Source of the DNA: Octopus vulgaris
Taxonomy: Eukaryota
NCBI GenBank assembly: GCA_951406725.2
Contig: OX597819.1
Location: 9,176,001-9,240,000, forward strand
Direction of reading: 5' to 3'
DNA: 64,000 nt
Each line of letters starts with the position of its first letter. The stretch's first letter is position 1. Below, piece after piece: positions 14,979-62,536 of the stretch. A program made the position numbers and the translations under genes. The notes beneath the pieces are model-generated. The model was not told where the DNA came from, ran no database searches, and saw nothing but the letters and a program-made list of their open reading frames with translations.

Positions 14979-15038
14979 TTGCACTGAAGATTAAAAAGTG
15001 CATTTTGTGCACTAATTATGAAATCATATGATATGCAG
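14979..15038 (+). ncRNA. Type I hammerhead ribozyme (AUA site)
   Basis: Stem I TTGCA/TGCAG, core CTGAAGA, stem II with AGTGCA/TGCACT, GAA, palindromic stem III ATCATATGAT, H17 = A15033. Confidence 0.75.
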
Positions 15039-15426
15039 CTGAGTTTGTTTATAGGAGGCTCGCTTCGAGAGTTGCATTCCCTCGAATTCGGTACAATGTG
15101 TTTATTTATTATGGTAGTTTTAACTTTAAAAAGTTCCTCCTAGCCTGAGGCATTTATGTATAGGAATGCCCTTAATATAAGTAAATATATTTAAGAGGAA
15201 TGAATTGATGGATTTTTACCTTATGAGGTTTTTCACGCTAACAACTTGATAAATTCTTATAAAGATTTTATCCTATTTTTCAATTATACATACATACATA
15301 CATACATACATACATACATACATACATACATACATACATACATGTATATATACATATATATATACATATATATATATATATATATATATATATATATATA
15401 TATATATATAATGATAATAATAATAA

Positions 15427-15452
15427 CTAGCTGGACCCGTGAAAATTCACGG
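15427..15452 (-). mobile_element. Helitron 3' terminus (family other than H1)
   Basis: Minus strand reads CCGTGAA-TT-TTCACGG hairpin then GTCCAGCTAG|T. Confidence 0.6.
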
Positions 15453-15527
15453 AATATATAAAAAATGTAAGCATCTGTAAATTGTGTGCTGGTGCCGTGA
15501 CAAATGTTTCTATATTCTGACAGTTAA

Positions 15528-15890
15528 AGGCAGCGAGCTGGCAGAAACGTTAGCACGCCGAGCGAAATGCCTAGCGGTATCTCGTATGCCGCTACGTTCT
15601 GAGTTCAAATTCAGCCGAGGTCGACTTTGCCTTTCATCCTTTCGGGGTCAATTAAATAAGTACCAGTTACGCACTGGGGTCGATATAATCGACTTAATCC
15701 GTTTGTCTGTCCTTGTTTGTCCTCCCTGTGTTTAGCCCCTTGTGGGGAGTAAAGAAATAGGTATTTCGTCTGTCTTTACGTTCTGAGTTCAAATTTTACC
15801 GAGGTCGACTTTGCCTTTCATCCTTTCGGGGTCGATAAATTGAGTACCAGTTGCGTACTGCGGTCGATCTAATTGACTGACCCTCTCCCC
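15528..15890 (+). mobile_element. SINE family C followed by a second partial copy
   Basis: Full copy to ~15760, then a headless copy. Confidence 0.87.
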
Positions 15891-16011
15891 ACCAAAAGGT
15901 ATATTGCGACAGTTACAGAATATAGAAAGAAGGATAAATTTCAGTTACGCAAACGTAAACAGTATTACTATTTAGCCTTAAAATACACCGTACATATTCA
16001 TCGTACATAAT

Positions 16012-16393
16012 GGAAGCACTCCGTCGGTTACGACGACGAGGGTTCCGGTTGATCCGATCAACGGAACAGCCTGCTCGTGAAATTAACGTGTAAGTGGCTG
16101 AGCACTCCACAGACACGTGTACCCTTAACGTAGTTCTCGGGGATATTCAGCGTGACACAGAGAGTGACAAGGCCGGCCCCTTTGAAATACAGGTACAACA
16201 GAAACAGGAAGTAAGAGTGAGAGAAAGTTGTGGTGAAAGAGTACAGCAGGGATCACCACCATCCCCTGCCGGAGCCTCGTAGAGCTTTAGGTGTTTTCGC
16301 TCAATAAACACTCACAACGCCCGGTCTGGGAATCGAAACCGCGATCCTATGACCACGAGTCCGCTGCCCTAACCACTGGGCCATTGCGCCTTC
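16012..16393 (-). mobile_element. SINE family B
   Basis: Full-length ~380-bp match. Confidence 0.9.
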
Positions 16394-16479
16394 ACTTTTA
16401 ATGGCCTACCATTGTATACAGTGCGTTTCTCTGCCCTAGGTATCAGAAAGACACTCGGCAAGGAATGGAAACAGAATTG

Positions 16480-16581
16480 AATAATAATAATAATAATAAT
16501 AATAATAATAATAATAATAATAATAATAATAATAATGATGATGATGATGATGATGATGATGATGATGATGATGATGATGAT
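16480..16581. repeat. (AAT)n-(GAT)n compound microsatellite
   Basis: Directly visible. Confidence 0.95.
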
Positions 16582-59205: not shown

Positions 59206-59586
59206 GGAAGCACTCCGTCGGTTACGACGACGAGGGTTTCGGTTGATCCGAAACAACGGAACAGCCTGCTCGTGAAATTAACGTGTAAGTGGCTGAGCAC
59301 TCCACAGACACGTGTACCCTTAACGTAGTTCTCGGGGATATTCAGCGTGACACAGAGAGTGACAAGGCCGGCCCTTTGAAATACAGGCACAACAGAAACA
59401 GGAAGTAAGAGTGAGAGAAAGTTGTGGTGAAAGAGTACAGCAGGGATCACCACCATCCCCTGCCGGAGCCTCGTGGAGCTTTAGGTGTTTTCGCTCAATA
59501 AACACTCACAACGCCCGGTCTGGGAATCGAAACCGCGATCCTATGACCGTGAGTCCGCTACCCTAACCACTGGGCCATTGCGCCTT
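59206..59586 (-). mobile_element. SINE family B with 12-bp TSD
   Basis: tcccgaacaata on both flanks. Confidence 0.92.
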
Positions 59587-60008
59587 CTCCCGAACAATAA
59601 CATAACAGATAAAAACATTGGCATTCTGAATGAGATAAAGGCATAAGTTCAATTTCAACATAAGCACATATTTCTAAAAAAAAAATTTTTTTAACTGCGA
59701 CTAGTGATTGACTGAGGTCAAATTTGTTAAAGGAAATGGAAGATGCAGTTAACAGTCTCAAAAGTTATTCCAGCTGAACTAATAATTCAATTGAAGCATT
59801 CTAGTATAAAATCTGGAACTGTTAAGTAAAACATTCAAAATATAAGGAGGCATGTAGGAGATGTTGACGGGAAAGTTACATTGTAGCGAGAAATGTCACA
59901 AAGCTAATCCAAAGATCCAACTTCCTGTAAAGTGTCAGTGCTATGTATGTGTGTCCGTGCGCGCGTGTGCGAATGTGTATGTGTACACATACACGTATAT
60001 GTATGAAA

Positions 60009-60222
60009 GCGGCGAGCTGGTAGAATCGTTAGCACGTCGGGCGAAGTGCTTAGTAGTATTTCGTCTGCGGTTACGTTCTGAGTTCAAATTCCGCCGAGGT
60101 CGACTTTGCCTTTCATCCTTTCGGGGTCGATTAAATAAGTACCAGTTACGCACTAGGGTCAATATAATTGACTTAATCCGTTTGTCCCCTCTGTGTTTGG
60201 CCCCTTGTGGGTAGTAAAGAAA
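60009..60222 (+). mobile_element. SINE family C
   Basis: Full-length match. Confidence 0.88.
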
Positions 60223-60419
60223 TGGTATATGTATGAATGAATATACATATACATATGCAACACTGTATGTGTATATAGATAGATAGATAGATAAATAGAT
60301 AGATAGATAGATAGATAGATAGATAGATAGATAGATAGATAGATAGATAGATAGATAGATAGACAGATAGATTGATGTGTATGTATGAATTTAAGTATTT
60401 ATGTATGTATGTATGCATG

Positions 60420-60940
60420 CAGATTTGTATGTTTCATTTTATAAATGTATTATCATGCATATAGTTGCATATCTAGACATGCTCATATATACTTAAATGA
60501 TGAACTTCTGGAAAGTTTTACAGATTTTTACAGTTCCAGTGATGGATTAGATCTGTAGTCTTCGAATCAGCTTTCACCTTTCTGGCCTTGAGAAGACTAT
60601 TTCCTCAAGATTTGTATTTCGGCAGTGTGTTACACATCCCAGTTTCCCAATAATTACAGGTATAAACCTGAACTTGTAGTTTGGATATAGTAGCTGCAGA
60701 TTTCTCAGCGTAGGTATTCTCTTTTCACTGATCTTCAGCTTTATGTTAACATCCGCTGGGCATCTGATTTCCACAACTGTACACAGTTTCTCTTCTCAAT
60801 CCCAAATCATAACGTCAGGTCTATTATGTTTACATTTTATTGATGCACTGGGACCTTCCACCAGTACTCCTTTTATTATGAGTAGCTATGGCTTCCACCA
60901 TACTATAGGTTCTTATTTCATACTCCCCGAGGTTATCCTT
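60420..60940 (-). mobile_element. RLE-type retrotransposon fragment, same family as 53540-54625
   Basis: EIRCPADVNIKLKISEK..YPNYKFRFIPVIIG. Confidence 0.85.
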
Positions 60941-61825
60941 CCAACGAGAAAGACTGTTTTAACGAAGTCGCGTCTTTTCCTAACCTTCGAAACGCGGAGT
61001 ATATAAAACGGGACAACTGATGAAGGGATTGTTCTTTATGTTGCCTGTCTCGTTTCTCTATTTGTTTCTTTTGTTGTCCGAAAGACAGTTCGTTTTCCAT
61101 GTTTTTGTTTTTTTATGTTCTCGTTTCTCATATTGTTCACGGTTTTTTTGACGTCCTGTACACATATATGCATGTATATATACATATATATGTCGGTATG
61201 CAATATATGTATGTATATATGCATATATATATATATATATATATATATATAGATATATATGTATATATATATATATGTATATATATATACATATATATAT
61301 ATACATATATATTAATAAATAAAACATATGCATATATATAAACATATATGTACGTACCTACCGCTACATGTACATATACACGCATATATATGTTCAGGAC
61401 ACCAAAAAGACGTCGAACACAATGAGAAACGAAAAAATAGACACAAACCCAAGGAACTGGACAATTTGTTTAAACAACAAAAAAATAGAGTACAGGACAA
61501 TTAACACAAAGAAAAAAACCCTTCTTCAGTCGCTATGGTTTCATCTACTCTGCGTTTCGAAGGTGAAAGCGAGACGTATCTTCGACAAGAAACTTTCCTT
61601 ACTGCGAAAAGCAAATCAATAAAAATTTTGAGATCTTTTCGCAGAGGGGTAAAAAATGGTAACAAAAACAGGACAGTAACGACAGTACAAATTATAAACA
61701 GTAAAAGACAGGACAAGGAAAATCAAGATAAGAAGGGCTGTTAACGCCGAACGAAAAAAAGTATTACGAACGCGGATTTTTTTGTGAACGACGAACGGAA
61801 CAAAAATAATTGTTGTCCAACCTCG
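60941..61825. mobile_element. Inverted pair of non-coding repeat P3 around a TA-rich core
   Basis: ~60941-61160 on + resembles the reverse complement of ~61395-61600. Confidence 0.6.
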
Positions 61826-61897
61826 ATATATATATATATATATATATATATATATATATATATATATATATATATATATATATATATATATATATAA

Positions 61898-62536
61898 AGG
61901 AATTCAGCGAACACCAGAACCAAATTTGGCGGGCAGGACAGATGAAAATTTATATAAAAAACAGAATTAAATGCATACCTCGGTTTCGGCTTTTAACAAA
62001 AGAATTACTTACATAATTCAAATGTCCGTGCTTCATCAGTGCATTCGTTCATTGTAAATGTAAACTGAAAAACTAACCCCAGCCTTCCGTGCCAAGACAG
62101 ACACGTGCTTAGTTTTACCGATTACATTAAGGATAAAATTTCAAATGTCTTGGTTCTGGCGCGCTAAGAAATTCCTGAAGCGAAGGGCTGCAGTAAATAA
62201 TTCACTGCGGTTAATGTGCTTACTACTAGAGAACGTATTTATTTCAATATTTAAATAATGAGGGAGATAAATTAATATTAATTTTAATATCAATTTAAAA
62301 CCAGTAGTCTAGCATACAAAAAATCCGCTGAATTTTTCCTCTAGAGAATTCCTTTGTAATTTGATCGTTGATGATCTGTTTCTAGCATACGGCCGACTTC
62401 CTAGCAGTCAAGCCCTGCCAATATACACATATATTAGAATTTTCTCTGACTTCTCAGATTTTTTGTATGCTAGACTACTGGTTTTAAATTGATATTAAAA
62501 TTAATATTAATTTATCTCCTTCATTATTTAAATTTA
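61898..62536 (-). mobile_element. Penelope-like repeat P2: partial tandem on minus plus an inverted segment
   Basis: 61898-62195 is the reverse complement of 31679-31975, 62252-62325 is the reverse complement of the unit end, and 62326-62536 is a direct copy of 31966-32170. Confidence 0.8.
61970..62045 (-). ncRNA. Type I hammerhead ribozyme (GUA site), canonical core
   Basis: AATGCA-CTGATGA-AGC..GCC-GAA-ACCGAGGT-A-TGCATT. Confidence 0.82.

Follow-up and report, generated by a model that had tools for sequence, protein, structure and literature searches.

The window considered here is a 64,000-nucleotide stretch of the Octopus vulgaris genome (GCA_951406725.2, contig OX597819.1, positions 9176001-9240000; the assembly comprises 2.80 Gb in 227 contigs). 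It has a GC content of 38% and abundant TA-type microsatellites, and the long frames inspected within it are transposon remnants or microsatellite frames. Hammerhead ribozyme motifs are scattered along it, and they are real. Very probably they are type I hammerheads of the kind carried by Penelope-like elements (PLEs), predicted to cleave as dimers and borne either by coding PLEs of which a truncated end is left or by non-coding tandem units of 350-590 bp, for which a PLE likely supplies the copying enzyme in trans. The original prediction, made from the letters of the window, anticipated several unrelated families, and genome searches indeed tell apart families A, B, C, D, E, F, G and I. The features are as follows.

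14973..15284, plus strand: 5'-truncated copy of family E, flanked by (TA)n and (TACA)n (end points approximate)
14979..15038, plus strand: hammerhead E, with core CUGAAGA, a U-U mismatch at the stem II base, a 10-nt palindromic stem III and A17
25060..25265, minus strand: family A inverted arm, unit positions 296-501, with its 3' end against (TA)n
25253..26249, plus strand: family A tandem, a 588-bp unit without an open reading frame (ORF), x1.7 head-to-tail; its 3' end is unit 409, against (TA)n
25375..25466, plus strand: hammerhead A copy 1, with core CCGAUGA (U4C), a 61-nt stem II and a palindromic stem III of 8 nt; cleavage is predicted after 25460
25963..26054, plus strand: hammerhead A copy 2, predicted to dimerise with copy 1 and to be cut after 26048
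31677..32188, plus strand: family B copy, 512 bp of a 546-bp ORF-less unit, with TA tracts on both sides
31829-31906, plus strand: family B hammerhead, with an A-C mismatch at the stem II base and an imperfect palindrome
34186..34229, minus strand: family G hammerhead, decayed and of an old family, with AAA where GAA is expected
37101..37342, minus strand: family C copy, with a minimal hammerhead at 37221-37255 (U4C core, 4-nt stem III, U17)
37492..37835, minus strand: family D, two 5'-truncated 3' ends, 198 bp apart, of a coding Neptune-type PLE
37595-37634 and 37793-37832, minus strand: family D hammerheads, with a U3-A8 core and a 2-bp stem II
38504..38587, minus strand: family I hammerhead with a long stem II; the element spans ~38445-38665
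40578..40788, plus strand: second family C copy, with a hammerhead at 40647-40681 that has a single stem I mismatch
40777..41006, minus strand: family F copy, with a decayed hammerhead at ~40952-40996
50832..51482, plus strand: broken reverse transcriptase (RT) left from a Hydra-type PLE, which compares at 44% with an intact 717-aa copy in the genome
61900..62546, minus strand: TA-flanked sister copy of family B, ~89% to the young unit
61900-62325, minus strand: first arm of this sister copy, with a hammerhead at 61969-62046; its inverted arm is 62326-62546

Hammerhead motifs of the window and the genome

The final descriptor calls for a type I hammerhead with a C3-G8 or U3-A8 core pair, U or C at position 4 and GAAA...UH, a stem I of at least 4 bp, a stem II of at least 2 bp with one unpaired base tolerated on either side, and a stem III that is at least 74% self-complementary. 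A first, strict version lost the sites that are bulged at stem II, and later versions were relaxed. With the final settings the window yields 11 matches, against a mean of 0.72 (maximum 3) in 50 local dinucleotide shuffles; a looser descriptor (stem I of at least 3 bp) yields 10 against 3.55. A genome sample of 30 evenly spaced 10-kb stretches (300 kb, all on chromosomes C1-C5) contains 29 motifs against 2.6 in shuffled sequence, distributed over 19 of the stretches, or 18 against 1.25 at a stricter setting. Motif frequency thus exceeds that of shuffled sequence in both, as the original prediction had expected. Rfam gave no hammerhead among the best 150 of 226 rows (E<=10), the matches being microsatellite-driven.

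The twelve or so hammerheads originally listed were found at the coordinates and with the sequences reported. Eight pass the descriptor (14979, 25375, 25963, 31830, 37221, 37596, 37794, and 61970), and three are decayed copies of their families. The site at 40647 fails by one stem I mismatch and belongs to family C; 40954 has G5 changed to A and a broken stem I, which most family F relatives pair over 6 bp; and 34186 has AAA in place of GAA, which is kept in one of three fetched family G relatives. The family I hammerhead on the minus strand (38504-38587), a member of a young family, had been overlooked. The remaining site, 45272, is rejected as a hammerhead: it lacks GAAA, adopts no hammerhead fold and has no second genomic copy.

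The proposal of dimer-type ribozymes with a palindromic stem III is borne out, as none of the eight stem III strings forms a cis hairpin and all form a self-duplex, with energies of -1.7 to -11.2 kcal/mol. When the palindrome filter is switched off in the genome sample, stem III is palindromic in 18 of 23 matches and in 18 of 87 shuffled ones (p 5e-7), and of even length in 22 of 23 and 46 of 87, respectively. At core positions 3 and 8, the sample holds 29 matches with pairing bases and none with non-pairing bases (shuffle 2.5). Cores with G3-C8 or A3-U8 are not enriched in the same sample (five against 2.6 shuffled). Separately, a G3-C8 hammerhead family with a 6-nt palindromic stem III was seen at three independent loci (L023:2478-2527, L121:1876-1926, and L142:2739-2789).

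It is extremely improbable that chance, or a palindrome artefact in AT-rich repeat DNA, accounts for these motifs. Loose descriptors do give a background, to which 45272 and the window matches at 1915 and 33567, which look like chance, probably belong. Against this explanation stand the ~11- to 15-fold excess, the palindromes that emerge without the filter, the control at positions 3 and 8, the compensatory changes described below, and the motif's presence in the pseudo-long terminal repeats (pLTRs) of coding PLEs from two clades; it is refuted for the motifs taken together.

Ten of the 13 window sites lie within 300 bp of (TA)5+, compared with 35% of random positions (p=0.002), in line with the earlier remark that most sit beside (TA)n. 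The corresponding figures for the genome sample are 15 of 29 motifs and a 28.5% background (p=0.007), so that TA proximity is ~two-fold over an already high background.

The sample density comes to 55-90 motifs per Mb; a block bootstrap on the looser count puts the genome total at 1.5-3.4 x 10^5 if chromosomes C1-C5 are typical. With 11 matches in 64 kb, the window falls within ~two-fold of the sample density and is typical of its genome rather than special. All the DNA examined holds 119 distinct matches in ~70 crude groups (palindrome filter off; some of these arise by chance). Most genomic motifs are likely single truncated copies, and inert.

Non-coding units and coding Penelope-like elements

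Genome-search totals per family are first-look candidates rather than copy numbers: 1430 for A, 904 for B, 2908 for C, 1749 for D, 1086 for E, 205 for F, 25 for G (self included; the other G matches are at 71-89%) and 1809 for I. The unit of family A measures 588 bp and that of B 546 bp, and among the best 40 matches both are 98-100% identical across chromosomes. Their head-to-tail arrays reach four or more ribozymes, and the longest stop-free frame in dimers is 67 aa for A and 97 aa for B. The E unit (~500-516 bp) wraps onto itself in 2 of 20 loci and the F unit (~350 bp) in 4 of 20; neither set of loci matches either PLE protein described below, bar one neighbouring Hydra-type copy. The arrangement of A, B, E, and F, with tandem units a few hundred bp long and one type I hammerhead each, supports their classification as putative non-LTR retrozymes. 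Family C has a fixed 3' end, and neither a period nor an ORF was found in the more than 1 kb of CA-rich DNA upstream of it; C, G, and I may be of coding or non-coding origin. A further piece of the window, 6043-6134, is a family C 3' tail without a ribozyme.

Family D is of a different nature. The claim that none of the hammerheads is accompanied by an ORF holds for the window copies, and that of non-coding retrozyme-like families holds for the ORF-less tandem units of A, B, E, and F; D (37596 and 37794) falls outside both, being the 3' end of a coding PLE. Its window copies are cut down to less than 200 bp, while longer genomic copies extend upstream into a reverse transcriptase and a GIY-YIG endonuclease. 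Two fetched copies (L223 and L224) have ORFs of 850 and 851 aa with DKG and CX4CxxC motifs, and the hammerhead lies ~150 bp past the ORF stop. The protein matches RVT_1 (E 1e-7) and GIY-YIG (E 0.06), and its Atlas neighbours agree with the assignment, made by motif, to a Neptune-type PLE. An extra open frame without a Pfam match lies upstream of the RT frame (L223:1-894, where the two overlap, and L224:3617-4201).

The remnant at 50832-51482, beside which no hammerhead was detected, led to a second, young coding family, with 10 fetched copies of a 717-aa ORF (one of 720 aa). These have a 2578-bp period, the motifs RWK, DKT and CxCX5C, and a pLTR hammerhead. No Pfam model matches the protein. 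A length below 3 kb, the pLTR hammerhead and insertion at TA are marks of the Hydra clade, whose motifs, as given in PMC8557442, the family matches; its Atlas neighbours agree with this assignment. A search with the protein returned 9862 first-look candidates, many of them near-identical young copies. Older Hydra-type relatives have another hammerhead downstream of the RT, with a stem I of 10-11 bp and a stem II of 9 bp (L159:2634-2699, L161:2382-2443, and L170:2662-2726).

Since D is a PLE end, one may ask whether all families are truncated pLTRs of coding PLEs, with tandems formed by local DNA duplication and no mobilisation in trans. This holds for D, no tandem unit has been demonstrated for C, G, and I, and 10.64898/2026.07.22.740005 discusses how PLE ends may be amplified locally. 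A and B, however, wrap onto themselves and have no flanking ORF at the dispersed loci fetched, which are 98-100% identical. Moreover, the last unit of their arrays is partial and stops at a fixed internal site, and the arrays have inverted arms and are flanked by TA, as expected of reverse transcription. As an account of all families this explanation is unlikely, and for A and B it is largely refuted.

In family E, the variable core site is position 7, at which 10 of 21 copies differ; the remaining core positions differ in 0-1. A sister of family A (L189; 77% identical, 599-bp period) keeps the short stems, yet in the 4-bp stem II the two inner base pairs differ in both partners, and a G-U pair in stem I becomes A-U. 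The natural A tandem (25360-26070), folded without constraints, is predicted to form a full double hammerhead, with an inter-copy stem III probability of 0.80-0.96 and a cis probability of 0.0. All 20 records listed as containing this stretch or a portion of it are contigs, and none is recorded as RNA. In such contigs, changes at 25390 and 25446 would compensate each other (phase not established). Three of the four contigs compared contain the 588-base join, which arises from DNA tandems too, and they show no read ends; they therefore say nothing on expression.

Insertion footprint, template and neighbouring repeats

The insertions of A and B were tabulated as 36 A arms (two are the same arrays seen from two loci, leaving 34 distinct) and 38 B arms. 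The loci were picked to span the ribozyme, so that one crossing of the site is forced and more than one is not. For A, 32 of 33 closed 3' ends fall within unit positions 405-519, 18 of them exactly at 409 or 418; for B, 17 of 38 are at 301 and 8 of 38 at 189. The two families are unrelated, and in both, the start zones are found past the predicted cut, ~180-200 and 290-310 nt further downstream. Two-armed insertions, read by hand, pair one near and one far zone at 11 of the 12 loci of A and 12 of the 15 of B, a pairing that resembles the one-sided tail of PLEs (PMC8557442). The 3' ends abut TA repeats in 28 of 33 closed A ends and 28 of 38 B ends, which upholds the proposed targeting of TA. 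Fixed internal 3' ends, inverted arms and abutment on (TA)n, all seen in these genomic copies, together constitute the signature of PLE insertion.

Arms longer than one unit number 15 among the 34 distinct ones of A and 19 among the 38 of B, and the ribozyme site is crossed two or more times in 9 of 34 and 6 of 38. A single linear cleaved monomer is therefore insufficient as a template, unless the enzyme makes template jumps. The 5' ends are scattered, with no pile-up at the cut site (2 of 35 in A against 1.25 expected, 2 of 38 in B against 1.46), although the choice of loci biases against detecting one.

These observations can be arranged into a putative cycle. Stem III is too short to close in one copy and is self-complementary. 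In a two-unit transcript both stems III would pair, allowing a cut at each NUH site that frees a unit-length RNA. We are evenly divided on whether ligation would then turn this unit into a circle; the chief other candidate for the template is the uncleaved multimer. As the footprint shows, copying starts at the two internal zones at TA tracts, passes the ribozyme up to four times and stops at scattered 5' positions, the second, inverted arm often coming from the other zone. The footprint suggests that the enzyme is a PLE reverse transcriptase, and Neptune- and Hydra-type PLEs with intact ORFs and hammerheads of their own are present in the genome. We put forward only tentatively, and with some doubt, the fuller proposal that this is one of the densest hammerhead populations reported and that its young non-coding families record a retrozyme cycle in DNA, in which a PLE primes twice from fixed sites of a ribozyme-made circle and rolls through it several times.

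It is also possible, though we lean against it, that the template is the uncleaved multimeric transcript, with the ribozyme slow or bypassed and no circle involved in spreading. In vitro, a PLE mainly used RNA that had not been processed, and the cut site was not the end of any read (PMC11167929). The young families have features that weaken the ribozyme (U4C in A, C, and the Hydra-type PLE, a mismatch at the stem II base in B and E, and U17 in C), copies within an array are frequently non-identical, and site-crossing arms and scattered 5' ends fit a multimer equally well. On the other hand, half of the arms are shorter than one unit, so that insertions would shrink with each generation unless multimers were regenerated, which a circle would do. 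Circles have been demonstrated for the retrozymes of mussel, coral, and axolotl (PMC7229834), and the motif is retained across many unrelated families.

Several results weigh against a PLE-driven, ribozyme-dependent cycle. Copies of A differ by 0.42% within an array and 0.60% between arrays, with 3 of 11 pairs identical; for B the values are 0.62% and 1.49%, with 4 of 9 identical. The pairs are not independent, and this modest excess of likeness within arrays lends weak support to copying from a single circle, without separating circle from multimer. The units of A and B have no significant DNA similarity to the two coding PLEs compared (best E 0.23), and among the 29 motifs of the genome sample 24 are without an upstream direct repeat and 28 without an upstream PLE ORF. 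The covariation count for A rests on three sequences and was reached by 35 of 500 shuffles, and in the alignment used the distal stem II of A is poorly conserved in the sister. No double hammerhead forms in the fold of the family B tandem (probability of the inter-copy stem III <=0.02), and that of the D pair is only partial (0.46-0.59; one stem I absent). Published work reports that in vitro U4C makes the ribozyme less active (PMC3088659), that no cleavage was seen for 8 of 9 Xenopus retrozyme dimers (10.64898/2026.07.22.740005), and that PLE insertion in vitro did not require cleavage (PMC11167929).

Other repeats accompany these elements. TA-flanked inverted or repeated AT-rich pieces in a tail-out layout (36709-37006, 60983-61564, 62613-62881, and 63462-63728), which have no hammerhead match, are possibly very short PLE-type insertions. 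An abundant older family resembling short interspersed elements (SINEs), at 4823-5245 and in over ten further copies, contains a (TA)/(TG) tract and is often found next to PLE-type insertions; a second older, abundant SINE-like family is found at 8852-9085 and in about eight further copies. A young 385-bp repeat, likely a SINE, is ~97% identical among seven long copies (16009-16395, 17580-17967, 20663-21046, 33144-33529, 40156-40492, 46811-47198, and 59206-59585) and one partial copy (7356-7614); it gave no hammerhead match and no ARAGORN tRNA.

Relation to known systems

Much of what the window displays has precedents. PLE hammerheads, dimer cleavage, U3-A8, the bulge after A9, U4C, TA targeting, internal priming and a PLE origin of retrozymes are all published already, whereas the host, the density and the insertion footprint are new here. 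The core variants cannot be called unusual, as the original prediction did, since U3-A8 is reported in PMC4209133 and U4C in PMC3088659. With the metazoan pLTR hammerheads of PMC4209133 our motifs share the type I topology, the short palindromic stem III, the need for a dimer, the base after A9 and U3-A8, as well as the occurrence of many families per genome, mostly as single truncated copies; here, stem III is often longer (8-10 nt) and stem II reaches 61 nt. The number estimated is far above the about 4,000 and 9,000 hammerheads of coelacanth and Xenopus that were deemed remarkable there. For retrozymes, about 5,000 copies are given for mussel and up to 120,000 for axolotl (PMC7229834), whose 28 Gb genome (10.64898/2026.07.22.740005) is roughly ten-fold larger than this one. 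All such comparisons are rough, as the descriptors differ.

The animal retrozymes of PMC7229834 and 10.64898/2026.07.22.740005 are likewise ORF-less AT-rich tandem units with one hammerhead each that co-occur with PLEs and are proposed to be driven by them. At 546 and 588 bp, our units are larger than the circles tested, which measure 170-400 nt, and are within the 51-972 bp range of 10.64898/2026.07.22.740005. Unlike those described, they carry a PLE footprint, with fixed internal 3' ends, inverted arms and TA targets; in the comparison with the two coding PLEs, no DNA similarity tied them to a particular PLE pLTR.

The coding elements agree with the Neptune and Hydra clades of PMC8557442 in the C-terminal GIY-YIG, the clade motifs, the pLTR hammerhead, partial tandems with an inverted 5' copy, a tail at one end and (TA)n targets. 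They differ from that account in the extra upstream frame, U3-A8 hammerhead and 2-bp stem II of the Neptune-type element, and in the U4C and U17 of the Hydra-type hammerhead. The Poseidon element PAc of Anolis (PMC11167929) also shows internal RT starts, AT-rich targets and genomic 3' ends at those starts; PAc is coding and was tested in vitro, whereas the footprint described here is on non-coding units and is genomic only. An octopus repeat annotation reports 31 recently active Penelope-like families in a main text in which the word "ribozyme" does not appear (PMC13282606). The literature searched listed no report of a hammerhead in octopus or another cephalopod; supplements, which could list the host, and Repbase and Dfam lay outside that search.

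Repeat annotation of this genome should class these units as PLE derivatives, and their natural core variants form a large library for ribozyme work. One genome here unites young, near-identical non-coding families, Neptune- and Hydra-type PLEs with intact ORFs, and hundreds to thousands of candidate insertions. It thereby offers a test system for two questions, namely the role of the PLE hammerhead in transposition and what mobilises animal retrozymes. If the proposed copying from ribozyme-made circles is true, it would show directly that PLE transposition proceeds through the circles of animal retrozymes as intermediates.

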